64,000 nt of DNA from Candidatus Kaiserbacteria bacterium (GTDB lineage: Bacteria > Patescibacteriota > Minisyncoccia > Phycocordibacterales > UBA2100). The translations under genes were made by a program, and so were the position numbers. The notes under the pieces were generated by a model. The model was not told the origin of the DNA. It made no database searches and worked only from the letters and a program-made list of their open reading frames with translations. Numbering within the stretch: the first letter of the stretch is position 1; every line of letters begins with the position of its first letter. This document shows positions 10,379 through 48,036 of this stretch, one piece after another. The stretch lies in contig CP066682.1 of the NCBI GenBank assembly GCA_016432285.1, positions 730,274 through 794,273 on the forward strand. The letters are read 5' to 3'.

Positions 10379-11596
10379 ATGTCAGACAAGGACGCGCTCC
10401 CCGACCACCGACGCCTCGGGCAGGAACTCGACCTCTTCGTCTTTTCGGATCTCGTGGGAAGTGGTCTCCCGCTCTGGACTCCGCGTGGCACGCTCTTGAG
10501 AAATCTGCTCGACGACTACGTGTGGGAGATGCGCAAGGCCCGCGGGTACGAAAAAGTCGAGATCCCGCACATCACCAAGAAGGAGCTCTACGAAACGAGT
10601 GGCCACTGGGACAAATTTAAGGACGATCTCTTCCGCATCACGACCCGCGAGGGCCACGAGTTTGCGATGAAGCCGATGAACTGCCCGCATCACACGCAGA
10701 TCTACGCCCGGAGGCCGTGGAGTTACCGAGAGATTCCGCAGCGCTACGCCAACAGCACCATGTGCTACCGCGACGAACAGTCGGGAGAGCTGAACGGCCT
10801 CTCGCGCGTTCGTGCCTTTACCCAGGACGATGCGCACGTTTTCTGCCGCGAACCCCAAGCGAAAGAGGAGTTTCTCAAGATTTGGGACATCATTGAGGAG
10901 TTCTATGGAACATTTGGTTTCAATCTCAAGATCCGCCTCTCCCTTCATGATCCAAAGGAACCGGACAAATATCTGGGAGACAAGAAGCGCTGGACAGCGG
11001 CGGAGCGGACGCTTACGGACATTGCAAAGGAAAGAGGCGTCGAATCCTCAATGGGAGTGGGCGAGGCAGCCTTCTACGGACCGAAAGTCGACTTTATGGC
11101 GGAAGACAGTCTCGGGCGGGAGTGGCAGGTGGCGACGATCCAACTCGATCTCAACATGCCGGAGCGCTTCGATCTCACGTGTGTGAACGAAAAAGGCGAG
11201 AAAGAGCGGGTCGTGATGATCCACGCGGCGATCATGGGATCGATCGAGCGCTTCCTTTCGATACTGCTGGAGCACCTCGACGGCAAACTCCCCACGTGGC
11301 TCTCCCCGGTACAGGTAGCAGTGCTCCCAGTCTCAGAAAGACACGCCCCGTACGCAGCGCAAATCCTCGAAGGGCTGCAACAGGCCGGGATTCGCGCGGA
11401 AATCAACGCCGACGACCCGCTGGGCAAGCGCATCCGGGAATCTAAAGTAAAAAAGATCCCGTACACGATCGTCGTCGGCGACGAAGAAATGAGCGCGAAG
11501 ACCGCCACACTCGAAGGCCGTACCGGCAAACTGGGCGTTCTTCCGATCGCGGATATTGTTTCAAAACTGGAAGAAGAAATACGAAATCGAGCCTAA
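10379..11596 (+). CDS. thrS: Threonyl-tRNA synthetase, catalytic plus anticodon-binding domains only (N-terminal TGS/editing domains absent)
   Basis: A class II aaRS core with ThrRS-specific zinc-site residues (KPMNCPHH...; motif 2 MCYRDEQSGELNGLSRVRAFTQDDAHVFC; motif 3 GSIERF) and a C-terminal anticodon-binding domain. Only 405 aa, against about 640 for canonical bacterial ThrRS. Confidence 0.85.
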   Translation: MSDKDALPDHRRLGQELDLFVFSDLVGSGLPLWTPRGTLLRNLLDDYVWEMRKARGYEKVEIPHITKKELYETSGHWDKFKDDLFRITTREGHEFAMKPMNCPHHTQIYARRPWSYREIPQRYANSTMCYRDEQSGELNGLSRVRAFTQDDAHVFCREPQAKEEFLKIWDIIEEFYGTFGFNLKIRLSLHDPKEPDKYLGDKKRWTAAERTLTDIAKERGVESSMGVGEAAFYGPKVDFMAEDSLGREWQVATIQLDLNMPERFDLTCVNEKGEKERVVMIHAAIMGSIERFLSILLEHLDGKLPTWLSPVQVAVLPVSERHAPYAAQILEGLQQAGIRAEINADDPLGKRIRESKVKKIPYTIVVGDEEMSAKTATLEGRTGKLGVLPIADIVSKLEEEIRNRA

Positions 11597-11672: not shown

Positions 11673-13385
11673 TTAGCTGCGCGCGATCACGATGCGCGGA
11701 GCGGCGCCGTCTTCCGGGCGAACGAAGCTCATCGCGTCTTTCGGTGCTTCGACAAAGAAGCGGGGTGCCTCTTCGCGAACCGGGAGGTTTGCGAGGCTAG
11801 CCGAACGAGCGATTGCCGGAGCCACTTTCTTTCCAAAGAGTGCCGGAGCTGCGACGGAGCCCGAGGACTGTGCCACCGGGGAGCGCTTCGGAGTGGCGAC
11901 CGCGAGCTTCGGAAAACCGAGACCCATGTTCGGGATGTAGTAGAGCGCGAGGTAGGCGCCGGCTGCCGCGAAGACAAGGAGCGAGCCGTAGAAGGCAGCG
12001 TTGCCCAAAAGCCCTGCGTCGAATCCGGTGTACGGAATCTGCGAGAGCGAGACCGAGGGACCGGCGACGTTGACCGCGACGTTGCAGGTGCGCGTGCCGC
12101 CTTGGCCCTGCACCGTGAGCACGTAGTTGGTCGAGACGTTGGGGCGCACCGTCAGAGAGCCGTTCGGTGAGACGTTGCCGATGCCGTCGGAGAGCCACGC
12201 CGAGTACGCGCCGTAGCTGGTCCACGAGAGCACCGTCGCCTGACCGTTTTGGATGTACGACTGCGAGGTCGTGATGATGCAGTAGAGGCCCTGCTGCGGA
12301 TACACCGGCGTTTGCGGGTAGACCGGGTACTGCGGATAAACGTACTGCACCGGGTACTGGATCGGGGTCTGATAGACCGGCGTTACTGTCGAGACGTTGG
12401 TGTTGCAGCTGCCGCCTGTGCACGTGTTGGTGTTGATGTTCGTGTTGGTGTTCGTGTTGACGATGTTGGTGCTCGGCGTCGGGAAGTAGACCGGAGGCTG
12501 TGGCTGCGGACGCGGAGGCTGTGGATAGACCGGAGGATAGCTCGGCGGCTGCGGCCGGATGACCGGCGGAGTCGTGTAGCTCGGCGGATAGCTCACCGAA
12601 CGCGGAGCCGAGTAGCTCGGAGCCGAGACGCGGAACGGCGCTGCGGCGGAAGCGTACTGCGGGTTCGAGTAGTTCTGCATCGAGTACCGCGTACCGAATT
12701 CATCAACATAGGTGTCGTAGATGCCGTACTCACTGTAGAGACCGTAAATATCGTACGGAGAAGAGTCACCGAAAAGCGCGCCTGTTCCATCACCAAAGAG
12801 TGCGCCGGAACCATCGCCGAAGTACGGATTGGAGCCGTCGCCAAAGAGACTGCCGGCACCATCGCCGAAGTACGAGCCAAGGCCATCGCCGTAGAAGTTA
12901 CCGAGGCCATCACCGAAGTACGAACCGGAGCCGTCCCCGAAGTACGAACTGAGACCATCGCCAAAGTACGAGCCGGAGCCATCGCCGAAGTACGGATCGG
13001 ATCCGTCGCCAAAGAGAGAGCCTGAGCCATCGCCATAGTAATAGCCGGAGCCGTCGCCGTAGATTGAACCGGAGCCGTCATCGAAGTAGGCGCCCCCTCC
13101 GTCGCCGTAATAGTAGCTTGCGCCATCACCGTAGAGGTTGCCAGCACCGTCTCCAAAGTAGAAACCACTCCCGTCATCATAGACAGAGCCGCCGCCGTCG
13201 CCGTAGTAGTAGCTTGCGCCATCACCGTAGAGGTTGCCGACACCATCACCAAAGAAACTTCCAAGTTCGTCGCCGCCGTAGGTATCGGCCGCCTCAGCGA
13301 CGCCAAAACTGCCCGCAAAAACGAGTGCGAGAGCGATGAGCCCGCCAAGAAATACGTTTGCATTTACACTGGATGCGGTTTTCAT
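11673..13385 (-). CDS. Secreted, C-terminally anchored protein with about 25 tandem octapeptide (F/Y)GDGxGx(Y/F/L) repeats
   Basis: Signal peptide MKTASSVNANVFLGGLIALALVFAGSFGVAEA. Residues about 40-240 are FGDGSGSY/FGDGLGNF/YGDGGGSV repeats, which show as a 24-nt DNA period from 12700 to 13300. These are followed by a Pro/Tyr/Gln-rich linker, an NTNTNINTNT tract, a beta-rich domain, an IPYTG motif, then a hydrophobic segment and a basic tail. Confidence 0.7.
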   Translation of the reverse strand: MKTASSVNANVFLGGLIALALVFAGSFGVAEAADTYGGDELGSFFGDGVGNLYGDGASYYYGDGGGSVYDDGSGFYFGDGAGNLYGDGASYYYGDGGGAYFDDGSGSIYGDGSGYYYGDGSGSLFGDGSDPYFGDGSGSYFGDGLSSYFGDGSGSYFGDGLGNFYGDGLGSYFGDGAGSLFGDGSNPYFGDGSGALFGDGTGALFGDSSPYDIYGLYSEYGIYDTYVDEFGTRYSMQNYSNPQYASAAAPFRVSAPSYSAPRSVSYPPSYTTPPVIRPQPPSYPPVYPQPPRPQPQPPVYFPTPSTNIVNTNTNTNINTNTCTGGSCNTNVSTVTPVYQTPIQYPVQYVYPQYPVYPQTPVYPQQGLYCIITTSQSYIQNGQATVLSWTSYGAYSAWLSDGIGNVSPNGSLTVRPNVSTNYVLTVQGQGGTRTCNVAVNVAGPSVSLSQIPYTGFDAGLLGNAAFYGSLLVFAAAGAYLALYYIPNMGLGFPKLAVATPKRSPVAQSSGSVAAPALFGKKVAPAIARSASLANLPVREEAPRFFVEAPKDAMSFVRPEDGAAPRIVIARS

Positions 13386-13537
13386 AATTATGTATGACGA
13401 CGTTTGCTAATTGCTTCAAACTACTACGACTTGTAATGCAGCTATTATATAACCCAAAAAAGGGTATGTCAAGTCCGAAGAATTGGCTGCGAGGCGCGCT
13501 GTTGGCGGGCCTCGCAACCGAAAACGCTCGATCTGGA

Positions 13538-14039
13538 TCAGGGTTTTTTGAGGATGACGATCCACTCACCTTTTTCGATCGTCCACTCCCCTTTGTACGC
13601 CACGCCCGCGATGAGCGCCCGCATCGAGGATCGCTTCGTCGCGACATCGGCCGGCACGGTGAGCATCGTTTCGAGCCACACGTACCGAGTGCCGTTTTTC
13701 ACGTACTCGGCGCGAAGCGCTTCGACGGTGTACTGGGCGGTCCCTTTTTTTGCCGCACGATCCGAACAGACGTAGATCTGCTTGATCCAGAGATTCTGAT
13801 CGGCTCTCGCGCGGGTGGGTTCGTCCATCTCAACGATGAGCGGGTATGTGAGCGGACGCTTCGCGTCCGGGTACGCACTCCAGTCGTAGAGCAATACGAC
13901 GCGCACGACCGACCAGCCGGGCGTGTTCGCTCTGATGAGCGTCTTGTGTGTGATCTTGATTTGATCACACGCCGCCTTACTTTCGGCGACTCCGATGAGG
14001 AGAGCCAAAAGAAGGATAAACATCCTGACAATGAACATC
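13538..14039 (-). CDS. Secreted hypothetical protein (167 aa)
   Basis: ATG at 14037-14039 with RBS AAAGGAAGGAACG. Signal peptide MFIVRMFILLLALLIGVAESKAA. The ORF track's longer 210-aa version is an upstream extension. Confidence 0.5.
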
Positions 14040-14121
14040 GTTCCTTCCTTTCTGCCCTCGTTCGTGAGAGCTCGACTGCACTTCGAGAAAAGTGCACGCG
14101 AGCGTTCGCGATAAACAGAGG

Positions 14122-14157
14122 CGCGCGAGGAGTGGTCGAAACCAACTCCTCGCGCGA
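14122..14157 (-). terminator. Candidate terminator hairpin downstream of the 14206..14574 gene
   Basis: Perfect 11-bp stem gcgcgaggagt/actcctcgcgc with loop ggtcgaaacca. Only a weak T-tract on the minus-strand side. Confidence 0.35.
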
Positions 14158-14205
14158 TCCTCAGACTCAATAGCCCTTGCTCGCGCTCGGGCTGCGGACG
14201 AGGCT

Positions 14206-14574
14206 TTACTTACGCTTCGGCCAGCCTTTGACGTTCGCCGCATCGCCGCCCGAGACCTTGGCCGGAGACAGCGCAGCGTACGTGTAGCGCAAGGGGCAGT
14301 CGGCAGCGAGCGCGACTTCCACCTTGTAGCCGATCGGCGCCTCGATGACCTTTTCGTCCGGCATGATCCATTCGGTCGGGCTCTTCTGCTTGGCCGCGAC
14401 CGGATCGCGCCAGGCGACCTGCGAGTTCGGGATCTGGAAGTTGCCGTCCTGCCCGACATTCAGCAGTTGCTGATTGGGACAGGCTTTCAGCGGGACCTCC
14501 TTGGTCTGCGCAAACGCAGACGTCGAGAGGGCGAGAACAGCCGCCGAGGCGGCAAGAGTGAAGAACTTGGTCAT
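14206..14574 (-). CDS. Small secreted hypothetical protein (122 aa)
   Basis: ATG at 14572-14574 with RBS AGGAGA. Signal peptide MTKFFTLAASAAVLALSTSAFAQ. Two Cys residues. No domain recognised. Confidence 0.5.
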   Translation of the reverse strand: MTKFFTLAASAAVLALSTSAFAQTKEVPLKACPNQQLLNVGQDGNFQIPNSQVAWRDPVAAKQKSPTEWIMPDEKVIEAPIGYKVEVALAADCPLRYTYAALSPAKVSGGDAANVKGWPKRK

Positions 14575-14904
14575 AGGAGTCTCCTGATACCCCTCGCAGT
14601 TGTTGAAGTTTGCGAGGGTTATATGCGCACCAAAATCGCGCGCAGGTAACCCTCGCAAATCGAGTCTGAGTTTAGTGAAAGAGCACGGGCTTGCGGGCCC
14701 TGCTCTGGCGCCCCGGACAGGAGGCTACAGAGCCGGGCAAACAATACAGAAAACGTGGAGAGATTTCAGCTTCGAGTGCCATTATAGCACCTCTGGAGCG
14801 ATTGTCAAGTCCCCTATTCGCCTTTAGGTAAGCCACGAAAAAGGATCCCGCGGCGGTGCTGAGTGCCGCCGCGGGTCGAAAGAACACTTCGGAACCTCAT
14901 CCTC

Positions 14905-15936
14905 TCAGTTGCAGACGCCCATGTTATTGGGGGCGATGCTGCAACCTTCCCGTGATGGCGGCTGAGGCTGTTGCACCGGAGCGGGCGGAGCAGGAGGCTG
15001 GATTACCGGCGATTGGACTGCCGGTGCTACGGGCGGAGGAGCTTCTTCCGACGGCTTGACTACCGGAGGCGAAGTCGGTTGCTCGAGCACAGGTGGCTTC
15101 TGCACAGGAACTTGCGGCTCCGGTGCAAGCTGCGTAGGCTTTTCCGTCTTGACCATTGGTGGTGCCGGTTGATCCGGCTTCACCTCCGCAGGCTTCTCCA
15201 CCGGTGCCGGTGGCAACACGGCCGGCTTCTCGATGGGAGCCGGAACAGGATCGGGCGGACCCTTCTCCCCCGCCCGCTCGGCCGGAGGCATCTGTACGTC
15301 CACCCCCGGCAGCTTGAGGCTCTTGAGGTGCGTCGCGACACGCTCCTTCACGAGATCGACGTCGGCGCGCTTGAACTCAATCACGCCAGTGCCGAGAAAG
15401 ACCGCGAGCACGAGCAGCACACCGACAACGGCACCCAGAAACATTTTGAGCGTGCTGCCGGTCGGCATATCGAGCGCCTCCGGCGAATTCGCCGGAGCCG
15501 TACCCCACCCCGCTCTCGCGGCGATACGCTTCAAGGTGTGCAACTGGTTGAAGCCGAGATCCCAGATGACCCACGCCGCAATCAGGCTGATCAGGATTTG
15601 ATCGTGCATCAGCGCCCAGAGATTGCTCCATGGAATCGGGTTTTCCCCAATGTATTTATTCCATGTCGGCAGCACGCGGTACGCCGCGTACAGCGATCCG
15701 CCGAGATCCGCGAGCCAGAACCACCAGTTGGCGGGTGCGAGCCGCGCGGAGAGGCGGTTGAAGTAGACGGCCGCGCCGAGTGCCACCCAACCGAGAATAT
15801 CGAGTGCGACCATACCGAGAATCGGAAGATCGATGATCGTCTTCTTCTCGATGAAGTAGATGGGCGTGATGTAGCCGATCACGTAGCTCGTGAAAATTGC
15901 GAGCGAAAGCAGCGCGAGTCCAAAGATGTAACGCAT
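14905..15936 (-). CDS. Polytopic membrane protein with a Pro-rich C-terminal repeat region
   Basis: Start MRYIFGLALLSLAIF at the ATG 15934-15936. At least five hydrophobic helices. The C-terminus carries PAPIEKPAVLPPAPVEKPAEVKPDQPAPP...PPVVKPSEEAPPPVAPAVQSP, then CSIAPNNMGVCN. Confidence 0.55.
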   Translation of the reverse strand: MRYIFGLALLSLAIFTSYVIGYITPIYFIEKKTIIDLPILGMVALDILGWVALGAAVYFNRLSARLAPANWWFWLADLGGSLYAAYRVLPTWNKYIGENPIPWSNLWALMHDQILISLIAAWVIWDLGFNQLHTLKRIAARAGWGTAPANSPEALDMPTGSTLKMFLGAVVGVLLVLAVFLGTGVIEFKRADVDLVKERVATHLKSLKLPGVDVQMPPAERAGEKGPPDPVPAPIEKPAVLPPAPVEKPAEVKPDQPAPPMVKTEKPTQLAPEPQVPVQKPPVLEQPTSPPVVKPSEEAPPPVAPAVQSPVIQPPAPPAPVQQPQPPSREGCSIAPNNMGVCN

Positions 15937-16098
15937 GGCGTTGTCCTTTCCACGATGAGAGGAGGGTTTGATTTCAGAGCCTGGAGACTGCCCCAGGAGC
16001 CGGGTACAGCAGTACGTCAAAATCGCTTACGCGTCAATGAAAAGAAGACCGGCGGCAACGAGGGTTGCCGCCGGCTATTTTGAGCCTCGTCAGCGTTT

Positions 16099-16647
16099 TC
16101 AACTGACTCTGTCGGAAGAGATCTCGTCGGTCAGCCGTGCGAAGCGGAAAGCGACCCACTGGAGGATCACAACGTCGAACTGCACGGTCCACCAGCCGAT
16201 GAAGATCACGAGAACCTGCTCCCACGTGAACCACGCAAGCGGGTTATACGCGCGGGAATCCCACTGCCACGGCCACCACGAGCGCGCGATGCCGAAGAGC
16301 AGAACGTAGGTGGCGATCTTCAGCGCCACCACGAGGTAGAGCGAGATCTTCGGCATGTAGGAGCGCCGTTGGTCGGCGATTGCCGCCGTTTCCCTGCCCG
16401 GGGGCCGGAAAAAGATCGGCAACGACTGCGCAAAGAGGTATCCGATCGAACCAAGCGCGAACGCGTACACGCACAGCCGGAAAATAAGGCCAGTTGTGCT
16501 GTTGTGGTCGATGGCCGCCGCCGGAACGACAAGCAGGATGACGAGGGCGATCGTGTAGATCACGATCGAACGCGTGCAAATACCCTCCCAGTTCTTGTTG
16601 GCCGCCCAGCTGTGCTGAGCGAGGAATTCGTGCGCCGGAGTTGGCAT
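16099..16647 (-). CDS. Integral membrane protein (hypothetical, 182 aa)
   Basis: Start MPTPAHEFLAQHSW at the ATG 16645-16647. Four hydrophobic helices. Trp-rich. Confidence 0.5.
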   Translation of the reverse strand: MPTPAHEFLAQHSWAANKNWEGICTRSIVIYTIALVILLVVPAAAIDHNSTTGLIFRLCVYAFALGSIGYLFAQSLPIFFRPPGRETAAIADQRRSYMPKISLYLVVALKIATYVLLFGIARSWWPWQWDSRAYNPLAWFTWEQVLVIFIGWWTVQFDVVILQWVAFRFARLTDEISSDRVS

Positions 16648-16794
16648 GATGATTCTCCACTTTGTCGATCCCCACGGATCGATCCAGAAAGATACAACCA
16701 CTAAAAGGTCGGGGTGTCAAAAGAAAACAGCGCGCGGGTCCAGAAGGATCTCCGCGCGCCGTGTTGATGGATGCTCGCCGCATTCGGTAGCGAA

Positions 16795-17175
16795 TCAGTA
16801 TCCGCCGGGACGCATCAGCAGCGGGGGCCGTCCGTCGAGAGGCTGTAGCACGAATCCCTCGAACTGGAGATAGGTGCCCGTCCGCCTGCTGCGCGCCCAC
16901 GCTTCGTAGGTTTCGATGGAACCCCCGCCGTTGTTTCCGTATCCGTTATGGTACGGATCGCGGTAACCGCCGCCGTATTGCGGCTGGTAGCCGCCGTACG
17001 ATTTACCGGGATAACCCCGGCGACCATACGGTGCCGGAGGCGGCGGATACGGTGAATGATCGGGTCCGCAGACGCCTCCCTGGTATGGGGAGCACGGGTG
17101 GCGGGCTTCCGCTGCCGACGGCAGCGCGAGCGCGAAACCCACCGCCACAATGGCGATGCCAAAGATCTTCTGCAT
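16795..17175 (-). CDS. Small secreted Gly/Tyr/Pro-rich protein
   Basis: Signal peptide MQKIFGIAIVAVGFALALPSAAEA, then HPCSPYQGGVCGPDHSPYPPPPAPYGRRGYPGKSYGGYQPQYGGGYRDPYHNGYGNNGGG, which is low-complexity. Confidence 0.55.
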   Translation of the reverse strand: MQKIFGIAIVAVGFALALPSAAEARHPCSPYQGGVCGPDHSPYPPPPAPYGRRGYPGKSYGGYQPQYGGGYRDPYHNGYGNNGGGSIETYEAWARSRRTGTYLQFEGFVLQPLDGRPPLLMRPGGY

Positions 17176-17300
17176 TTCTCTATTCCTTTCTCCGGATTTC
17201 AGGAACGCCCTCTCAAAATCGTTCGATCTTGCGAGAGCCCGCCACTTCGCAATCGCGCAAAGCGAAGTGGCGGGCGCTTACAAGCCCGGCTCAAAGAGCG

Positions 17301-17771
17301 TTAGCGGCCGACCGGCACCGCGTAGCCGATGTCGATCGGACGGCCGATTTCGACAGCGTACCCGAGATCGATCGCGTGTCCGATTTCCACGCCGTACCCG
17401 ATCGTGATTGGACGACCCACGTTGACGCCATAACCAATCGGCACCGCGTATCCCAAGGTGATCGGACGGCCCACCGGCACGGGGTAGCCGAGCGTAATCG
17501 GACGGCCCGTCGGCACTGGATAGCCGGTCGGTACGGGAGAGCCCGTCGGATACGGGCGCCCGACGGAGGCGGGCGAGCCGGTGTAGCCGGGAGAGCCGTA
17601 TGAGCTCGGCGAAGCGTACGCCGACGGATATGCGTAGCCCGCGGAATAAGCGTAGGCAGAAGGGTACGCGTACGCGGAGTCGTACGAAGCGTACGACGGA
17701 TACGCCTGCGCGCTCGCGCTCCCGATGCTGACGGCAAAGAAAGCGATTGTGATGAGAAGAATTTTTTTCAT
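17301..17771 (-). CDS. Secreted repetitive protein (Tyr/Ala/Ser-rich, then GRPIT(L/I)GY(A/P)VPVG repeats)
   Basis: Signal peptide MKKILLITIAFFAVSIGSASAQA. Then AYPSYASYDSAYAYPSAYAYSAGYAYPSAYASPSSYGSPGY. Then six or seven 13-aa repeats GRPITLGYPVPVG, GRPITLGYAVPIG, GRPITIGYGVEIG, GRPIDIGYAVPVG. Confidence 0.6.
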   Translation of the reverse strand: MKKILLITIAFFAVSIGSASAQAYPSYASYDSAYAYPSAYAYSAGYAYPSAYASPSSYGSPGYTGSPASVGRPYPTGSPVPTGYPVPTGRPITLGYPVPVGRPITLGYAVPIGYGVNVGRPITIGYGVEIGHAIDLGYAVEIGRPIDIGYAVPVGR

Positions 17772-17773
17772 AG

Positions 17774-18436
17774 TTAGATTTCCGCCACGAAGTCGGCAGT
17801 CAGGACGAAGCGCGCCGTCTCACCCGTCAGCGTGTCGCACGTAACGAGCGTGAGGCGCCTCCCCTCTTTTGCGAGACTGATCACAGAGGTTGGATCCTCC
17901 ACATCCATGCGCTCCACCGAGACGACGCTGTAGAGATACTCTCGCCCGTCGCCCGAGACGCGGATTGAATCGCCCGCCTCGAGCTCCGAGATGCGGTTGA
18001 AGGCTTTGTACATTTGGTTGCGCACGACGGCGACACGCGAAGAGTGCCCGAAGATGAGCACGTTGCCGCTCTCTCCGAGAAGCGCCGAGTCCACGTAGCG
18101 GATCGGACCCGCTTTGAGGTTGTCGTACAGGACCTCAATGTCGCGGCTCTCGATGTTCTGCACGGGCAGATCAAGGTCGATCTCGGGGATCACGATCCGC
18201 TCCGGCTTCACTCCCGGCACCGGTGCCTCCTTTTGCGCGAGAATCGAAAGCGGCCCGAGCTGCGGCAGCTCCGAGAGCGTTACGCTCGCGCTGGAGCAGG
18301 TGTCGTCGATGTAGCACGGCACGAAGCCGACCGATTCGGCGGCCGAGAGCGACAAAAAGAAAATGACGATCGTCGCCGCGAGGAACGCCGCTTTAGGCGG
18401 CTTCTGAGCCGAGGAATTGCGCGATATTTCGTTCAT
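17774..18436 (-). CDS. srt: Sortase-family transpeptidase
   Basis: N-terminal TM anchor (AAFLAATIVIFFLSLSAA). The catalytic region has ...NVLIFGHSS... and the sortase TLxTC motif (RLTLVTCDT) near the C-terminus. Start M at 18436, or the alternative M at 18442. Confidence 0.75.
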   Translation of the reverse strand: MNEISRNSSAQKPPKAAFLAATIVIFFLSLSAAESVGFVPCYIDDTCSSASVTLSELPQLGPLSILAQKEAPVPGVKPERIVIPEIDLDLPVQNIESRDIEVLYDNLKAGPIRYVDSALLGESGNVLIFGHSSRVAVVRNQMYKAFNRISELEAGDSIRVSGDGREYLYSVVSVERMDVEDPTSVISLAKEGRRLTLVTCDTLTGETARFVLTADFVAEI

Positions 18437-18604
18437 ACACATTGCAATAATACCCCGTGAATGCCCATCTGTCAAGATCTCTTTGTCGGAATCGTCGCCT
18501 CTTTACACACAGGGCCTTGCCCAGAGGACTGTCCTCTGGGGTTTTCCGCTTTGGGGTATTTAAATGGAACCGAGAGGCTTGACAAAGCAAAAATATGTAG
18601 TAGT

Positions 18605-19663
18605 ATGGCGCCACCTATGGCTGATACCAACGGCGAAACTCGCCCCAGCATTTTTGCGAATATCCTTGCGATTGTCGGATTCATCATCCTGATCGTTGTG
18701 GTTATTTGGGGCCTCATCAATCTTGCCTCGATTTCTCGGGGCTGGCTCTCTTCCCTTTTTGGCGGAAGCCGTGGCGCCGCGATCGAAGTGCGGGCTCCCG
18801 CGAGCACGACCTCCGGCACGCCCTTCACCGTCTCGTGGACATACGAGGAGAGCGATGAGGGCACGTACGCACTTTTGTATCAGTGCCAGCCGGGAATTCG
18901 TTTGCAGGTTGCTCCGTCGCAAAACGGCATCCCCTGTGGCGCCGCCTTCAATGTTGGGAGCTCCGAGAAACAAGTTTCCGTGATTCCGATCTTGAGCGGC
19001 CAGAGCACGACGAACCTCCCGATTTCGATCATCTTTTTGCCGACGGCTACCGGCACGCAGGCAGAAGGCTCAGCGACGGTTGCCGTACTTCCCGCTTCCG
19101 GTGCGACCCCAGAGCCCACGACGCCGACCCCGACGCCCTCGTCTCCTGAAACGCCGGCGCTGCCTGTCGGCCCTGCCGACCTTTCCGTTCAGATCCTTTC
19201 GGTGAGCATCGATTCCTCGGGCAACGGCACAGCCACCTTCGACATCGGTAACGTGGGACTTTCGGGATCCGGTACCTACTACTTCACGGCGCAGCTCCCG
19301 ACTCAGAGCGGCTACACCTACTCTTCGCCCGCGCAAAGCTCGCTCTCCCCCGGCTCGCACGTCGTGAACACGCTTCGCTTCAGTGCAGGCACGGGTGGAG
19401 TCTTCAGCGTGACCGTCGATCCTTCGAATGCGGTCCAGGAGTCCAACGAGGGCAACAACTTCGCCTCGCAAAATGCGAGTGCGCAGTACTACAACTACAA
19501 CAACTCCTACAACTACAATTACTCGCAGACCGCGGGCTACCCGTACACGTATAATCAGTATCAGTACTCGTATCAGGACTACAACGCGTACAACCAGTAT
19601 CCGTACAACTACAATTACAACTATCAATACCCGTACCAAACCTCCTACCCGTACGCATACTAG
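18605..19663 (+). CDS. Membrane-anchored cell-surface protein with CARDB-like beta-sandwich and a Tyr/Asn-rich tail
   Basis: ATG at 18605. N-terminal TM (IFANILAIVGFIILIVVVIWGLI). A Pro/Thr linker (PEPTTPTPTPSSPETPALP). A domain ending ...SVTVDPSNAVQESNEGNNFAS, an E-x-NE-x-NN motif typical of CARDB. The C-terminus is YYNYNNSYNYNYSQTAGYPYTYNQYQYSYQDYNAYNQYPYNYNYNYQYPYQTSYPYAY. Confidence 0.6.
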   Translation: MAPPMADTNGETRPSIFANILAIVGFIILIVVVIWGLINLASISRGWLSSLFGGSRGAAIEVRAPASTTSGTPFTVSWTYEESDEGTYALLYQCQPGIRLQVAPSQNGIPCGAAFNVGSSEKQVSVIPILSGQSTTNLPISIIFLPTATGTQAEGSATVAVLPASGATPEPTTPTPTPSSPETPALPVGPADLSVQILSVSIDSSGNGTATFDIGNVGLSGSGTYYFTAQLPTQSGYTYSSPAQSSLSPGSHVVNTLRFSAGTGGVFSVTVDPSNAVQESNEGNNFASQNASAQYYNYNNSYNYNYSQTAGYPYTYNQYQYSYQDYNAYNQYPYNYNYNYQYPYQTSYPYAY

Positions 19664-19763: not shown

Positions 19764-20435
19764 ATGGTTGGTCTTTCACTTTCTCTGCCCTGGCGCAGAA
19801 AGGCGCGCGCGCAAGCAGTACCGAGCGCGCTCGAGGCTGCCACAAGTTGTCTGGAACAAAATTGGGATGCGGCTGCTCTCAACCGGTACTACCAGACCCA
19901 ACCATCGAAAGGTGAGCGGGCAGATGCCGCGTGGCGTTTTCTGTTCAACTGGCCGAAGCATCCGATTTTCCTTGTCGATCACGAACCGTATACCGTACCC
20001 GTGTTCGCCGACATGGCACAGGCGGCGGCGCACGTTCGCTCACTTCTTCCGGCGAATGTCTTCGACGACGGTTTTCTCCAGAACATCGGCGTCTGGTACT
20101 ACCAGACGAGAAACCGACCACTGCCACTTAGTTGGTGCGGTGCGACCGGCAAGTGCATCACGCGGATGGCCGCAGTCGAGCAAACCTTCCGCGACCTCGT
20201 GAGCAACGAGGCCGTCGAGGTGGCGATTGCATTCTTCCGGCATGTACTGGTCAATTCCGGGGATGCCATTAGCGACACCGAGTGGATGCACGCGCTCGCC
20301 TACATGAAGCGTATGGCGGAAGTGAGGCGGGCGAAGAAGCACCTGATTCGCGAAGAGCTGCTGCAAATCCGGAATGCCGCGATTCCGCACAGATACGGGC
20401 TTGCGCTCGTGATTCAGCGGGAGATGTCGCGCTAA
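19764..20435 (+). CDS. Hypothetical protein (223 aa)
   Basis: AGGAGGA RBS 5 nt upstream of the ATG at 19764. Followed by a terminator at 20463-20493. No recognisable domain. Confidence 0.45.
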   Translation: MVGLSLSLPWRRKARAQAVPSALEAATSCLEQNWDAAALNRYYQTQPSKGERADAAWRFLFNWPKHPIFLVDHEPYTVPVFADMAQAAAHVRSLLPANVFDDGFLQNIGVWYYQTRNRPLPLSWCGATGKCITRMAAVEQTFRDLVSNEAVEVAIAFFRHVLVNSGDAISDTEWMHALAYMKRMAEVRRAKKHLIREELLQIRNAAIPHRYGLALVIQREMSR

Positions 20436-20462: not shown

Positions 20463-20493
20463 GCGGCTCCGGGATGCGGGGCCGTTTTCTTTT
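20463..20493 (+). terminator. Rho-independent terminator overlapping the gyrB 3' end
   Basis: Stem cggctccg/cggggccg (one G-U wobble), loop ggatg, then ttttcttttat. The gyrB stop codon lies within the T-tract. Confidence 0.6.
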
Positions 20494-22552
20494 ATATATC
20501 GAGTGTTGCTTCCTTCGCGTGGGATTGGATGAATGACTTGCGCGCCGGCACATCGGTGCCCATGAGCATGTCGAAAATCTGGTCGGCCTCCTGCGCGTCC
20601 TCTATCGCTACCTGCTTCAGGATGCGGCGCGCCGGATCCATGGTCGTCTCCCACAACTCCTCCGCGTTCATCTCGCCGAGACCCTTGTAGCGCTGTACTG
20701 ATACCTTTGGAGTTTTCTTCGCCTTCGTTTCCTCCTCGGGCTCTTCCGTTTCTTCTGCCTCTGCCGGAGCTTCCGATTCGATCGGGAGGTCGGCACCCAC
20801 GAGTTTGATCCGCTCCTCGTCGGAATACGCATAGAAAATCTCCTTGCCCTTGCGCACCTTAAAGAGCGGCGGCTGCGCGATGTAGAGGTAGCCGCCGTCG
20901 ATCACGGGGCGGAAGTGGCGGTAGAGGAGCGTCAGGAGGAGCGTGCGGATGTGCGCGCCGTCCACGTCGGCATCCGTGGCGATGATGACTTTGTGGTAGC
21001 GCAGCTTTGTGATGTCGAAGATGTCGCCGATCGCGGTCCCGAGCGCGACCACGAGATTCTTGATCTGCTCCGAGGAGAGCATCTTATCGAGACGCGCTCG
21101 CTCGATGTTGAGAATCTTGCCGCGAAGCGGCAAGATCGCCTGCGTGCGCCGGTCGCGCCCCATCTTGGCGGTGCCGCCGGCCGAATCCCCTTCCACGATG
21201 AAGAGCTCGGATTCCTCGGCACTCTTCGTCTGGCAGTCGGCGAGCTTTCCCGGGAGCGTGAGGCCGTCGAGCGCGCCTTTGCGGAGGATCGAGTCCTTCG
21301 CCGCTTTCGCCGCTTTGCGTGCCTTCATCGCAAGTGCGACCTTGCCGACGATCGCTCTCGCGTCATCGGGATGCTCTTCGAGGAAGGCCTGGAATGCCTC
21401 ACCGAAGACAGCCTCGGTAGCTCCGCGCGCCTCGACGCTGCCGAGCTTGCCCTTGGTCTGACCCTCAAACTGCACCTCGCGCATTTTCACCGAGATCACG
21501 GCCGTGAGACCCTCGAGCACATCGTCGCCGGTGAAGCTGTCGCTTTCCTTGCCGCCGTTTTTGTTGACCGTGTTGAGCGTGCGGGTAAGTGCCGTTTTGA
21601 AACCGGTAACGTGCATGCCGCCTTCGGCGTTGTAGATATTGTTGGCGAAAGCCATGAGGCGCGCCGATACGTCGTCCACGTACTGGAGCGCGACTTCCAC
21701 ACTCACGCCGTCCTGCTCCTTTTCCACGTAGAAAATATTTTTGTGCATCGGCTCCTGGTGGCGGTTCTGGAACGCGACGAGGCTTCGGAGGCCTCCCTCG
21801 AAGTAGAAGGTCATCGACGGAGCGTCGAGGCCGAGCTCGCGGAGGTAAAAGACGTCTTCGTCGTTGACCTTTCCTGAATTACGCAGATCGATTACTGAAA
21901 TGCGGAGCCCCTTCACGAGATAGGCCTGCTGCCGCATGTGCGCCACGATCGTATCCCAGTTGAACTCGCGCTCGGGGAAGATCGAAGCGTCGGGCTCGAA
22001 GGTGATGATGGTGCCGTGCAGCTTCGAGGCGCCGACCTTTTTCGTTTTGCCGATCGGCTTGCCGCCATTTTTATATTCCTGCACATGCTCGCCGCCGTCT
22101 CGGTGCACCTGCGCACGGACGTTGGTCGAGAGCGCGTTGACGACCGAGACACCGACGCCGTGGAGTCCTCCCGATACTTTATATCCATCACCGCCGAACT
22201 TCCCTCCTGCGTGGAGAATCGTCATCACTGTCTCGAGGGCGGAGACTTTTGTCTTGGGGTGAATGTCGACCGGAATGCCGCGGCCGTTGTCGGCGACCCG
22301 CACGCGATTTTCCGGGAGCAGCACGACCTCGATGTCGTTGGCAAAACCGCCCATCGCCTCGTCGCGCGAGTTGTCGAAGACTTCCCAAATGAGGTGGTGC
22401 AGTCCGGCTGCGCCGGTCGTGCCGATGTACATGCCAGGGCGGCGGCGCACGGCCTCGAGCCCCTCGAGCACCGTGATGTCGCTCGCGCCGTACGAAGAAC
22501 CGCCCTTTTTCGGGGCGATTTCTTTGGCCTTTTTGACGTTATTTTTAGCCAT
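20492..22552 (-). CDS. gyrB: DNA gyrase subunit B
   Basis: GHKL ATPase N-terminus (...LEGLEAVRRRPGMYIGTTGAAGLHHLIWEVFDNSRDEA...), the transducer domain, the TOPRIM region (ELFIVEGDSAGG) and the C-terminal tail EATLDI. 686 aa. Confidence 0.9.
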   Translation of the reverse strand: MAKNNVKKAKEIAPKKGGSSYGASDITVLEGLEAVRRRPGMYIGTTGAAGLHHLIWEVFDNSRDEAMGGFANDIEVVLLPENRVRVADNGRGIPVDIHPKTKVSALETVMTILHAGGKFGGDGYKVSGGLHGVGVSVVNALSTNVRAQVHRDGGEHVQEYKNGGKPIGKTKKVGASKLHGTIITFEPDASIFPEREFNWDTIVAHMRQQAYLVKGLRISVIDLRNSGKVNDEDVFYLRELGLDAPSMTFYFEGGLRSLVAFQNRHQEPMHKNIFYVEKEQDGVSVEVALQYVDDVSARLMAFANNIYNAEGGMHVTGFKTALTRTLNTVNKNGGKESDSFTGDDVLEGLTAVISVKMREVQFEGQTKGKLGSVEARGATEAVFGEAFQAFLEEHPDDARAIVGKVALAMKARKAAKAAKDSILRKGALDGLTLPGKLADCQTKSAEESELFIVEGDSAGGTAKMGRDRRTQAILPLRGKILNIERARLDKMLSSEQIKNLVVALGTAIGDIFDITKLRYHKVIIATDADVDGAHIRTLLLTLLYRHFRPVIDGGYLYIAQPPLFKVRKGKEIFYAYSDEERIKLVGADLPIESEAPAEAEETEEPEEETKAKKTPKVSVQRYKGLGEMNAEELWETTMDPARRILKQVAIEDAQEADQIFDMLMGTDVPARKSFIQSHAKEATLDI

Positions 22553-31548: not shown

Positions 31549-32889
31549 TCAACGTCCCTCAAGAATGTCGATCTCGGCCTGGATTTCATCGACATGCTCC
31601 ATGACCGAGTCGCCGTACCGGGCGTTGGCGGCTTTGTTCCAGTTGGCGCCGGCGAAATACTTCAGAGCCGCACGGCGCTCAGCCGTACGCGTCCCCTCAT
31701 CGGCGCCGTTGTCCTTCATGAGGAAGGCGGTCGCGAAGACTGCGGTGCGCGCATTCCACGGATTCGGGAATGTCTCTCCGCTTGCCGCGGCAAGGCGCGT
31801 CTTGTAGAGCATCCAGGTCGAAGGAATGAACTGCGCCGGGCCCATGGCTCCCCCGTACCCGGAGCCTTGCGGGCACGACACCGGCGTGTTGGACCAGTCG
31901 CGGCCGAGTGCTTCGGTGATCGTCTGGAAGGGGGTCGTGTCGCGCGGCGCCTTCATCACGTTGGAAATGGCGCGACCAGTGTTCTTGCCGACGCCGCCGC
32001 CAGTGAGGAGATTCGTTACGTAGCACGAACCCACGTTGACTCCGAGATCGGATTCCTGCGTCAGAATCGCGAGCACGAGCGCGGGCCGGACGCCCGTGGA
32101 AGCGCTCGCTGCTTTGGCGTATTCGTACGCCGTGCCGAAGGGAATCGCCTCCGAGTCGCGCAGTCCAAAGAGCGCTGCGCGGATCGCATCGGCCTGGCGC
32201 TGCTTCTGCGCAATGATCTGCTCGTACGATTTTTCAACGCCCTTGGTGGCAGTCAAAATCCCCTGCTTTTCCTTTTCGTCGCGCTCCACGGCCTGCTTCG
32301 CGAGTACCTGCGCCGTGCGGACTTTCTGCGCCTCATCTTCTTCCTCTTCGAGCGCCTGTTTGCGGCCCGAGAGATCCTCCCGGAGCGCCGAAATCTGCGC
32401 AAAAGAAACGTCGAGCGATCGCTGGATTGCCTCGAAGTTGTCGATATCCTGAAAGAGATCCGAGAGCGATCCGCCGAGCGCGAGCTCGACGATCGTGAGG
32501 TCGTCGATCTCGCGGGTGCGCCGCAAAATCTGCGCGAGCGATTCCTCGCTGCGAAGCGCCTTCGCGTCGAGCTCGCGGATCGCGGATTGCTTTTCTGAAA
32601 TGCCGCCCTGGAGCTGCTTGAGGGCGAGGTCGGTCTGCTTGATCTGGAGCTGGGCGGTCTTAATCTTATTGTCGAGAATCGAGATGTCGCGCTCAAGCGA
32701 CGTGCGCTTTTTCTGAAGCTCGCTCAAGGTGCCTTTGTTGTTGGCGATATCGCGCTCGATCTGGTCGAGCTCCGCCTGGAGGCGCGCCCGCTCGGCCGCA
32801 TCCTGCACCTGCGCCCCAAGAGAAAGCGGCAGGGCCGAAAGGAATAGCAAAAGGATGGCACACAAAAAAAATCTCCGCGCGAGCACCAT
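31549..32889 (-). CDS. Secreted coiled-coil protein with a C-terminal SLT-type lytic transglycosylase domain
   Basis: Signal peptide [26 protein letters not shown]. About 230 aa of coiled-coil heptads. The C-terminal domain has [14 protein letters not shown] (catalytic Glu-Ser of the family-1 LT/lysozyme-like fold) and ...[13 protein letters not shown]... Confidence 0.7.
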
Positions 32890-46840: not shown

Positions 46841-47380
46841 TCAGAATTTGAACAGAACGGTGCCGATCATCTCCGAGGGCTGGATTGTGCCCCAGACCCG
46901 GCTGTCTTCACTTTGCGCGCGGTTGTCTCCCATGAGGAAATAATCTTCAGGACCCAGCTTCATTTCAAAATCCGGGCCGTTCCCCGCCTTTTCCCCTTCT
47001 TCCCATTTCTCAATGTTCGCCCCTTTCTCCTCTGCTCCCCCTTCCTCCCATTTTCCCCCTTTTCCCCTTTCTGCTGTCACCGATCCGTTCGCAATGCGGA
47101 TCGTTTCGTTCGGCAGTCCGATTACGCGCTTGAGGATGATCGGGTGCTGCGGATTACGCGGATCGCGGAACACCACCGGCGAGCCGCGGAAAAGCCCGAT
47201 AAGCCGCGGCGAGATCTTTTCCACGAGCAGGTAATCACCTTCCTGAAAAGTCGGCTGCATAGAAATTCCCGTCACGATATACGGCCGTATCAGAAAAGGC
47301 AGGAGCAAAATCAGAGTTGCAACAACGGTCAAGACTGGATCCCTCCGAATTCCTGGGAGGTTTAGCCTTCCAATTTTCAT
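46841..47380 (-). CDS. lepB: Signal peptidase I
   Basis: SPase I boxes: GISMQPT (Ser nucleophile), KRVIGLPNETI (Lys general base box) and GDNRAQSEDSRVWG. It has an unusual Gly/Glu/Lys-rich insertion (GKGGKWEEGGAEEKGANIEKWEEGEKAG). The ATG at 47378-47380 overlaps the RAYT3 stop (ATGA), and the first about 10 codons are REP-derived. Confidence 0.8.
   Translation of the reverse strand: MKIGRLNLPGIRRDPVLTVVATLILLLPFLIRPYIVTGISMQPTFQEGDYLLVEKISPRLIGLFRGSPVVFRDPRNPQHPIILKRVIGLPNETIRIANGSVTAERGKGGKWEEGGAEEKGANIEKWEEGEKAGNGPDFEMKLGPEDYFLMGDNRAQSEDSRVWGTIQPSEMIGTVLFKF
47352..47373. repeat. REP (family 3) copy at the RAYT3/lepB junction
   Basis: cctgggaggtttagccttccaa with arms gggagg/ccttcc. It lies within the first codons of lepB. 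Confidence 0.8.
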
Positions 47381-48036
47381 ACGCCGACATCTTTGTATCG
47401 TAGCCAATAATCCACATGATCCTGAACTTCCCTAGCGCTCGATAGGTACCCGGGGAAAGCTCGCGGAGAAGTAATTACGTGACGGTTGTTGATATATTCT
47501 CCCAGGCTCGAATACTGATACTCGCTTACATGTCTCTGTAGTTTCCCAAAGTCGCGTGCTCCGAATTTCTTCCAATTTGGATCTTTCAATTTGGCTGGAT
47601 TTAGATGAATATAGGAAAATAAATATTTAGCATACGCATCACCCTCCACGTGCGAGGCCTTAAACGTCCCCTGAAAAAGCGCGCCACTTCGCTCATGTTT
47701 TTCATTGAAATACATCGTATACGCAGTCTGTAGTCTCTGCATAAATTTCGAGATACCGCCGTCGACCAGCGGTGTCAGATACAGATGAAAATGATTGGGC
47801 ATCAAACAATACGCGCCTATTGCCACTAAAGAACTGGAAGGTTTAGCCTCCCAGATCCGGCTCGAGGTTTTAGAAGAGAATAGAAAATCGATTCTTTTGT
47901 TTTCTCTATCATTGAGCAGGAAAAGGTACACCAGAAATCTTTTGTACTCCGCTGGCGACATGAACACTCGGCGTTTATCAACGCCTCTATTGTAAATGTG
48001 ATAGAACTCGCCTTCTGCAAAGGTGATGCGTCTCAT
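47377..48036 (-). CDS. REP-associated tyrosine transposase (RAYT), copy 3, with a REP-derived in-frame insert
   Basis: MRRITFAEGEFYHIYNRGVDKRRVF...GAYCLMPNHFHLYLTP (HuH)...SEYQYSSLGEY (Tyr). The internal REP at 47834-47854 encodes ...RIWEAKPSSS... Its start ATG overlaps the stop of the giant upstream ORF, and its stop overlaps the lepB ATG. Confidence 0.85.
   Translation of the reverse strand: MRRITFAEGEFYHIYNRGVDKRRVFMSPAEYKRFLVYLFLLNDRENKRIDFLFSSKTSSRIWEAKPSSSLVAIGAYCLMPNHFHLYLTPLVDGGISKFMQRLQTAYTMYFNEKHERSGALFQGTFKASHVEGDAYAKYLFSYIHLNPAKLKDPNWKKFGARDFGKLQRHVSEYQYSSLGEYINNRHVITSPRAFPGYLSSAREVQDHVDYWLRYKDVGV
47834..47854. repeat. REP (family 3) copy embedded in-frame within the RAYT3 coding sequence
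   Basis: ctggaaggtttagcctcccag. The reading frame is maintained across it. It sits in the same protein loop as the embedded REP in RAYT2. Confidence 0.8.

Follow-up and report, generated by a model that had tools for sequence, protein, structure and literature searches.

What does a sortase act upon when no canonical substrate is encoded near it? The question is raised by a locus of Candidatus Kaiserbacteria, a lineage of the candidate phyla radiation, in which a sortase gene (g8) lies between thrS and gyrB within a run of nine genes for exported or membrane proteins (g1 to g9). The locus falls in a 64,000-nucleotide stretch of GenBank contig CP066682.1 (assembly GCA_016432285.1, positions 730,274 to 794,273 of the forward strand), here called the window, and all positions in it are counted from its first letter. 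More than half of candidate-phyla-radiation genomes are reported to encode sortases (PMC6744442), and the literature that we searched holds no description of their substrates or signals. A preliminary description of the locus singled out an IPYTG motif in g1, and suggested either a non-canonical sorting signal or substrates encoded elsewhere. The data presented here strongly support the former, by the invariance of the motif, its reuse in paralogues of classical layout, and its linkage to the sortase in both directions of search. We consider it likely that in this locus Candidatus Kaiserbacteria and their close relatives (Paceibacterota, candidate phyla radiation) have a dedicated sortase system with [IV]PYTG as its signal.

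The sortase of the locus

The assignment of g8 as a sortase with a TLxTC motif holds. The protein matches PF04203 (74.6 bits against a cut-off of 26.6, E 7.8e-21) and TIGR01076 (41.6 bits, cut-off 39.35), contains the sequence TLVTC, and is 100% identical to the NCBI entry 'sortase [Candidatus Kaiserbacteria bacterium]'. His144, Cys213 and Arg222 align with the catalytic residues of solved sortases and are invariant in 32 homologues of 53-74% identity; the inactive homologue that the preliminary description had allowed for is thus not what the alignment contains. The AlphaFold model has a predicted local distance difference test score of 72.8, with core blocks at 90-94, and matches 126 PDB chains at E <= 1e-3, all 50 of the matches listed being sortases. 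Because of the profile matches, the invariant triad and the sortase fold, we regard g8 as a bona fide sortase that is probably active.

As to a class between A and F, fold and family stand, and no curated class was reached. The model fits class A, E, C and D structures about equally (E ~1e-9), a class A or class B profile was not listed for g8 at E <= 0.1, and neither the curated profiles nor the fold search yielded a class. On these profile and fold comparisons, g8 is a member of an unclassified sortase clade.

The candidate sorting signal of g1

Within the window, the IPYTG of g1 is the sole xPxTG-type motif that precedes a helix close to the C-terminal end of any plausible gene. From its N-terminus, g1 comprises a signal peptide (MKTASSVNANVFLGGLIALALVFAGSFGVAEA|AD), GDGxGxxF octapeptide repeats, Pro-rich and Asn/Thr-rich linkers, an immunoglobulin (Ig)-like domain, the segment VSLSQIPYTGFD, a helix and a predicted cytoplasmic tail. 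Signal peptides and helices, including those of g1, were called by hydropathy and inspection of the N-terminus, a heuristic rather than SignalP. IPYTG is followed by FDAGLLGN and then by a helix of 19-21 residues. The remark that the island lacks a canonical LPxTG substrate is borne out, as no LPxTG motif with a helix near the C-terminus was found in the window; nor was one found in plausible genes of the related sortase loci. These loci, 80 in number, were collected by a scan with a sortase alignment, taking one genome per species, and derive from Kaiserbacteria, Paceibacterota and Parcubacteria.

The pattern L-x-Q-I-P-Y-T-G-x-D-x-G is invariant in 23 sequences homologous to the last 207 residues of g1. 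When a profile of the 46-residue signal region was run against 1.84 billion cluster representatives, it returned 725 matches at E <= 1e-3 and 330 at E <= 1e-10, and QIPYTG is present in 162 of the 162 proteins examined from the 725. In six-frame open reading frames (ORFs) from the 80 sortase loci, moreover, IPYTG is present 62 times where composition would predict 0.38, and permuted motifs turn up 0-1 times.

The motif is also reused in paralogues that end in a different manner. In related loci, ORFs of 675-916 residues (measured stop to stop) directly upstream of the sortase feature ISYIPYTGxxxP, a helix and a short RGGAR end, and further paralogues combine LTQLPYTGDSDY, LTQIPYTGDFGPLG or LDKVPYTGDGFGPLG with a helix and an Arg-rich C-terminus. 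The same arrangement follows LTQLPYTG, LTQIPYTGDFG and LDKVPYTGDGFG. Up to three PYTG genes with Arg-rich ends stand in tandem just before thrS in related loci, and a short basic end is found in paralogues of other genomes, e.g. P0129, which ends in ...IAARGVRR. An LPYTG protein with a short tail, from locus L067, reaches 13.6 bits against the LPXTG anchor model TIGR01167, for which the cut-off is 15.9. The layout of motif, helix and short Arg-rich end in these paralogues is the classical one. All share [IVL]PYTG with a helix after it, as would be expected if the motif were a sorting signal, rather than a structural motif specific to one family.

Linkage between motif and sortase was assessed from both sides. 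Starting from the sortase, 48 of the 80 loci have an ORF with [ILV]PYTG and a helix no more than 10 kb away, as do 37 of the 42 loci that have at least 8 kb of downstream flank; in every case this ORF is on the sortase strand. Starting from IPYTG in metagenome contigs, the sortase is found upstream on the same strand in all 12 loci whose upstream flank reaches 8 kb or more, and in 13 of 14 when 5 kb or more is required. Eight sortase loci without IPYTG were checked for variant motifs, and none were found in them. Owing to its invariance, its reuse in paralogues of classical layout and this two-way genomic linkage, IPYTG is very probably the sorting signal of this sortase clade.

The outer part of g1 and the partners g7 and g9

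Across the g1 family (107-111 homologues, among P0121-P0282), the outer part contains 11.9% Tyr, 10% Gly, 8.4% Pro, 4.6% Asp and 0.18% Lys; elsewhere, lysine makes up 3.9% of the g1-family tail and about 5% of the outer part of the sortase. The repeats previously noted in g1 (GDG) and g7 (GRPITLGY) were both recovered with Tandem Repeats Finder. The repeat units of g1 orthologues differ wholly, comprising GDGxGxxF in the window and DNLGYYDSYG or DQPFYYDGS in others, with the acidic and aromatic composition kept; judged from these orthologues, the repeats evolve fast under a constraint on composition. Repeat regions of two orthologues lie at 16997-18436 in locus L001 and at 14580-16037 in locus L005.

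In g7, a unit of 18/36 nucleotides encodes a six-residue-type repeat, xPIxIGY, which gives weak matches to LpxD hexapeptide-repeat models (E = 0.02). The start codon of g7 lies 2 nucleotides past the sortase stop. The earlier view of g9 as CARDB-like is likewise upheld, as the protein exceeds the cut-off of PF07705 (26.0 bits against 22.7, E 1.1e-5). It has type II membrane topology and contains two beta-sandwich domains, of which CARDB is the second; AlphaFold and Foldseek describe tandem Ig-like domains, with the CARDB structure 3idu matched at a TM score of 0.70. The fold search was too generic to assign a function to g9, returning tandem Ig-like/CARDB matches, while its transglutaminase matches fall on the beta-barrel domains of those enzymes. 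The g9 alignment shows no lysine at any invariant or nearly invariant position. Both g7 and g9 are conserved partners of the system and are probably part of the same surface layer.

Proposed mechanism and rival explanations

In the proposed mechanism, g8 would be held in the membrane by its N-terminal helix and would recognize [IV]PYTG, presented within VSLSQIPYTGFD just outside the C-terminal helix of g1. By analogy with characterized sortases, the Cys of TLVTC would attack the Thr-Gly bond; the peptide VSLSQIPYTGFDAG is accordingly a candidate g8 substrate, predicted to be cut after Thr. The Tyr-rich, acidic and nearly lysine-free outer part of g1 would become covalently attached via its new C-terminal Thr, with a peptidoglycan precursor as the most likely acceptor, and a fragment of ~117 residues (Gly-Phe-Asp, helix and tail) would be left in the membrane. 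g9, with its two Ig-like/CARDB domains on a membrane stalk, and g7 would belong to the same surface layer, and g2 to g6 represent lineage-specific exported filler. A cell wall is plausible because the window encodes a protein with an SLT transglycosylase domain (31549-32889, minus strand) and related islands encode YkuD L,D-transpeptidases.

Several observations weigh against this reading. Thr-Gly cleavage and attachment to a wall precursor are inferred from characterized sortases, and g8 falls below the cut-off of every class model (class E, 47.6 bits against 160; F, 34.3 against 166; C, 33.3 against 160; D, 32.8 against 165; GN, 20.9 against 158). g1 is not matched by the LPXTG anchor model TIGR01167 even at E <= 10, and the substrate scan of the source contig covered 64 kb of its 859 kb. 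About ten residues are conserved around IPYTG, which exceeds typical LPXTG signals, and the motif could serve a structural or binding role. Roughly 10% of the long-flank sortase loci have no IPYTG gene nearby. Furthermore, g1 departs from the classical layout. The preliminary description had IPYTG followed by a hydrophobic segment and basic residues; the helix is present, and the short basic end is not, since 116 residues follow IPYTG. The conserved end of this tail, described below, could mean that the protein works uncut in the membrane.

Tails of 95-135 residues after QIPYTG are found in most of the proteins examined, with 32-61 residues in a minority. In 145 homologues with a long tail, the end reads T-x-D(98%)-S-M(97%)...G-x-x-P(97%)-R(93%)-I(91%)-V(81%)-I(90%)-x-R(99%)-x-COOH; g1 of the window reads D-A-M where homologues have D-S-M. 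We could link this terminal motif to no family or function.

These features invite other explanations, of which one dispenses with cleavage. IPYTG could be a juxtamembrane structural or ligand-binding motif, with g1 remaining uncut to signal or tether via its cytoplasmic tail, the sortase finding its substrates elsewhere, and the genomic linkage reflecting a shared surface function. The strongly conserved DSM...PRIVIxR end, the extension of conservation well past a pentapeptide, the strong promoter-like site that g1 has to itself and the sortase loci lacking an IPYTG gene are all consistent with such a role. Nevertheless, we consider it unlikely: paralogues without the long tail contain the pentapeptide again, in the classical order of motif, helix and basic end, the window and the plausible genes of related sortase loci offer no other LPxTG-type substrate, and the linkage is near-complete both ways. 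Alternatively, g8 might cleave g1 mainly as a processing protease, either releasing the outer part or producing the membrane fragment, with its tail, as the functional product. The conserved tail end and the conservation of residues past the cut site, G-[FL]-D-x-G, would suit this role, and there is a precedent in Streptococcus gordonii, where a two-component system senses the C-peptide left over from sortase A substrates (PMC11326707). Yet the short-tail paralogues use the same motif without a tail to signal with, and the conserved core of the locus encodes no two-component system or obvious cytoplasmic partner. Hydrolysis is, moreover, normally a side reaction of sortases, and we hold this explanation to be distinctly improbable.

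A further alternative concerns the acceptor. As in class C pilus assembly, the sortase might act as a polymerase that joins g1, g7 and/or g9 into a covalent fiber or sheet, which would be in keeping with the Ig-like domains of g1 and g9, the tandem IPYTG genes of some relatives and the presence of a class C sortase among the sequence and fold matches of g8. However, pilus-type polymerization is unlikely because the substrates are nearly lysine-free (0.18% in the g1-family outer part) and the g9 alignment has no conserved lysine; with the class C model also reaching just 33 bits against a cut-off of 160, we give polymerization very little credence. We therefore favor a dedicated sortase that recognizes [IV]PYTG, in which case the g1 tail may act before cleavage, in recruitment or retention, or after it.

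Two look-alikes of the signal provide leads rather than findings. The linker between the anchor helix and catalytic domain of g8 contains LPQLG, and LPxLG is preceded by LS in 115 of 120 sortase homologues, with L70, P71, L73 and G74 invariant in alignment A3. The linker sequence VTLSELPQLG parallels VSLSQIPYTG of the substrate, with Leu where the scissile Thr stands, and LS-x-LP-x-LG may thus be a built-in pseudo-substrate or lid. AlphaFold confidence in this linker is 50-60, and the model neither supports nor excludes its docking in the active site. At the C-terminus of g9, the YPYAY end resembles the P-Y-T core of IPYTG; among 120 g9 homologues, 114 have a final Tyr and 69 end in YPY[AVT]Y. 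This end may be recognized by the sortase. These leads can be joined with the tail into one speculative scheme, which we think rather unlikely as a whole: the cleaved tail (DSM...PRIVIxR-COOH) would be functional, reporting or coupling surface assembly inward, g8 would carry a pseudo-substrate with an uncleavable Leu, and the YPY[AVT]Y end of g9 would be a second, minimal sorting signal with a one-residue leaving group, or a product mimic. If true, it would describe a self-regulated membrane-to-wall tether by which an ultra-small episymbiont acquires a lysine-free, tyrosine-rich coat.

Organization and conservation of the locus

The locus runs from thrS (10379-11596) through nine consecutive ORFs for exported or membrane proteins and an ORF of 223 residues to gyrB (20492-22552). 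All nine ORFs of the preliminary description were recovered at the coordinates given there. Starts of g1 to g9 were re-assigned to the Met preceding each hydrophobic N-terminus, so that several lie downstream of the first possible start codon (Table 1). Judged by a crude measure of hydropathy, roughly one in three of the window's other ORFs contains a hydrophobic stretch; nine in a row is unusual on this count, a rough statistic because the greedy ORF picker took some wrong frames in GC-rich DNA. Searches of Pfam and NCBIfam gave nothing significant for g1 to g6. Promoters and terminators were called as pattern matches only, the latter being hairpins 3' of g5 and of g9. The full consensus match upstream of g1 suggests that this gene is transcribed on its own.

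Table 1. Features of the sortase locus, in window coordinates (aa, amino acids; nt, nucleotides)
Feature	Positions	Strand	Remarks
g1	11673-13385	-	570 aa; signal peptide ending AEA|AD and C-terminal helix; predicted sortase substrate
Predicted cytoplasmic tail of g1	11676-11942	-	Ends ...KDAMSFVRPEDGAAPRIVIARS; PRIVIARS at 11676-11699
Conserved end of g1 tail	11676-11765	-
Transmembrane helix of the predicted sorting signal	11943-11999	-	AAFYGSLLVFAAAGAYLAL; hydropathy 1.76 over 19 residues
Core of the predicted sorting signal	12009-12053	-	VSLSQIPYTGFDAGL; IPYTG at 12024-12038
Outer part of g1	12051-13289	-	Nearly lysine-free
Tandem repeat region of g1	12766-13254	-	Unit of 24 nt/8 aa, GDGxGxxF/Y; higher-order periods of 48, 72 and 96 nt; Tandem Repeats Finder
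Promoter-like site 5' of g1	13444-13472	-	TTGACA-17-TATAAT, 12/12 consensus match
g2	13538-14038	-	Small secreted protein, signal peptide; variable filler gene
g3	14206-14574	-	Small secreted protein, signal peptide; variable filler gene
Promoter consensus at g3	14808-14781		12/12 match
g4	14905-15936	-	Membrane protein, four helices, Pro-rich C-terminal half; variable filler gene
g5	16099-16647	-	Trp-rich membrane protein, four helices; variable filler gene
g6	16795-17175	-	Small secreted protein, signal peptide; Gly 18%, Pro 13%, Tyr 10%; variable filler gene
g7	17301-17771	-	Secreted Tyr/Pro/Gly-rich protein, signal peptide, hexapeptide-like repeats
g8 (sortase)	17774-18436	-	N-terminal anchor helix; 220 aa from Met14 of the 233-aa ORF
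Arg222 of g8	17810-17812	-	In ARFVL; numbering of the 233-aa ORF
Cys213 of g8	17837-17839	-	In TLVTC; numbering of the 233-aa ORF
His144 of g8	18044-18046	-	In IFGHSS; numbering of the 233-aa ORF
LPQLG motif in g8 linker	18254-18268	-	Between anchor helix and catalytic domain; context VTLSELPQLG
Divergent control region, sortase/g9	18437-18616		Promoter-like sites on both strands
Promoter-like site, sortase side	18475-18447	-	11/12 match to sigma-70 consensus
Promoter-like site, g9 side	18579-18606	+	10/12 match to sigma-70 consensus
g9	18617-19663	+	N-terminal anchor helix, CARDB domain; divergent from sortase
YPYAY C-terminus of g9	19646-19660	+	Ends a disordered Tyr/Asn/Gln-rich tail
Tenth ORF	19764-20435		Between g9 and gyrB; without signal peptide or helix

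The order gyrB, g9 (divergent), sortase, g7-like gene, variable genes, g1-like gene, thrS, dnaE is repeated in other Kaiserbacteria, and g1 orthologues adjoin thrS in related genomes. Among the 80 related loci, 68 have a g9 homologue beside the sortase, 28 have a g7 homologue immediately downstream of it, and 44 contain g1 homologues. The core of the conserved locus comprises a divergent CARDB-like membrane protein, the sortase, a secreted hexapeptide-repeat protein and one to three [IV]PYTG-plus-helix proteins. The intervening genes are a different matter. When 160 related loci were compared, homologues of g2 were confined to L094, L096, L097 and L137, and g6 had none. Homologues of g3 are limited to L094, L096 and L097, where they lie upstream of the IPYTG gene, g5 has a single one, adjoining an IPYTG gene in L102, and g4 has none among related loci. 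With homologues in a few near relatives or none, g2 to g6 were rejected as conserved parts of the system. Horizontal acquisition was also rejected, as the GC (guanine plus cytosine) content is unremarkable and the locus is syntenic across Kaiserbacteria. The locus is a vertically inherited module of Kaiserbacteria and close relatives, with a conserved core of g1, g7, g8 and g9 and fast-evolving filler genes, and the idea of an idiosyncratic island is not sustained.

Some features of the related records are worth noting. Many with a Kaiserbacteria-type sortase locus (L011, L013, L014 and others) bear the title 'uncultured Candidatus Saccharibacteria bacterium' (TPA assemblies); as their sortase, g9 and IPYTG genes match those of Kaiserbacteria and Paceibacterota, the titles may be mistaken. 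The dnaE gene beside the syntenic island of Kaiserbacteria contig JACRFI010000007.1 (L167, 4343-8800, minus strand) contains intein and LAGLIDADG domains and encodes 1485 residues, against 1087 in the window. In a Kaiserbacteria CG10 contig (L003, 16477-16902), the variable genes that follow the sortase include an inserted HicA-type toxin gene and a small neighbor.

Elsewhere in the window, two giant ORFs of 1952 and 2256 residues (48033-53891 and 54388-61158, both on the minus strand) lack an IPYTG-type signal; the former features Laminin_G_3, SPRY and DUF7483 domains and an N-terminal hydrophobic segment. A signal peptidase I is encoded at 46841-47407 on the minus strand (Peptidase_S26, 1.1e-31). 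Together with the SLT transglycosylase, it fits a wall-bearing organism that exports many proteins.

Implications

Sortase genes of the candidate phyla radiation were already known; the IPYTG signal, its long-tail form and the conserved locus, as read from these sequences, appear to be new, and occur in no curated model and no paper of the literature searched. Kaiserbacteria and their relatives are uncultured bacteria that presumably rely on surface proteins for contact with their hosts. A clade-wide [IV]PYTG signal would allow the surface-displayed proteins of these bacteria to be listed directly. Moreover, g8 is nominated as a sortase with a specificity distinct from LPXTG, LAXTG and NPQTN, which could serve as an orthogonal ligation tool. 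The system also presents concrete oddities that can be checked, namely the conserved cytoplasmic tail, the scarcity of lysine in the portion displayed, and the look-alikes of the signal that lie in the sortase linker and end g9.

Comparison with known sortase systems

The system most readily invites comparison with the housekeeping sortases of class A (LPXTG) and class E (LAXTG). g8 shares with them the sortase fold, the His/Cys/Arg triad, the TLxTC signature and the N-terminal membrane anchor, and g1 resembles their substrates in that it has a signal peptide and, towards its C-terminus, an xPxTG motif and then a helix, with a short Arg-rich end in some paralogues. In the fold comparison g8 is matched best by class A and class E structures, and class E is its best class model, far below threshold. 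Unlike class A and E signals, [IV]PYTG begins with Ile or Val and keeps an invariant Tyr in its third position, which is normally variable, and its conservation extends to L-[ST]-Q before the motif and [FL]-D-x-G after it. Most substrates here also keep 95-135 residues past the motif, with a conserved terminal motif. g8 further differs in meeting no class threshold, and its host is a candidate-phyla-radiation bacterium.

In the sortases of class C, which assemble pili, a lid occupies the active site. Here too, several substrates with Ig-like domains are encoded nearby, and the LPxLG segment of g8 could occupy the groove as a lid. Unlike class C, g8 has no DPW-type lid, its LPxLG segment is not confidently docked by AlphaFold, and the substrates are nearly lysine-free, with no conserved lysine nucleophile.

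The class GN ('marine') sortase TIGR03784 is paired with a single adjacent target protein, according to its TIGRFAMs description. Dedicated pairs of that type, so described, resemble the present system in having one sortase beside one or a few cognate targets, a clade-specific motif, and a pairing that is visible from the gene neighborhood. The score of g8 against TIGR03784 (20.9 bits, cut-off 158) sets the two apart, as do the motif, the target family and the taxon, and the Kaiserbacteria locus adds g9 and g7 as further conserved partners.

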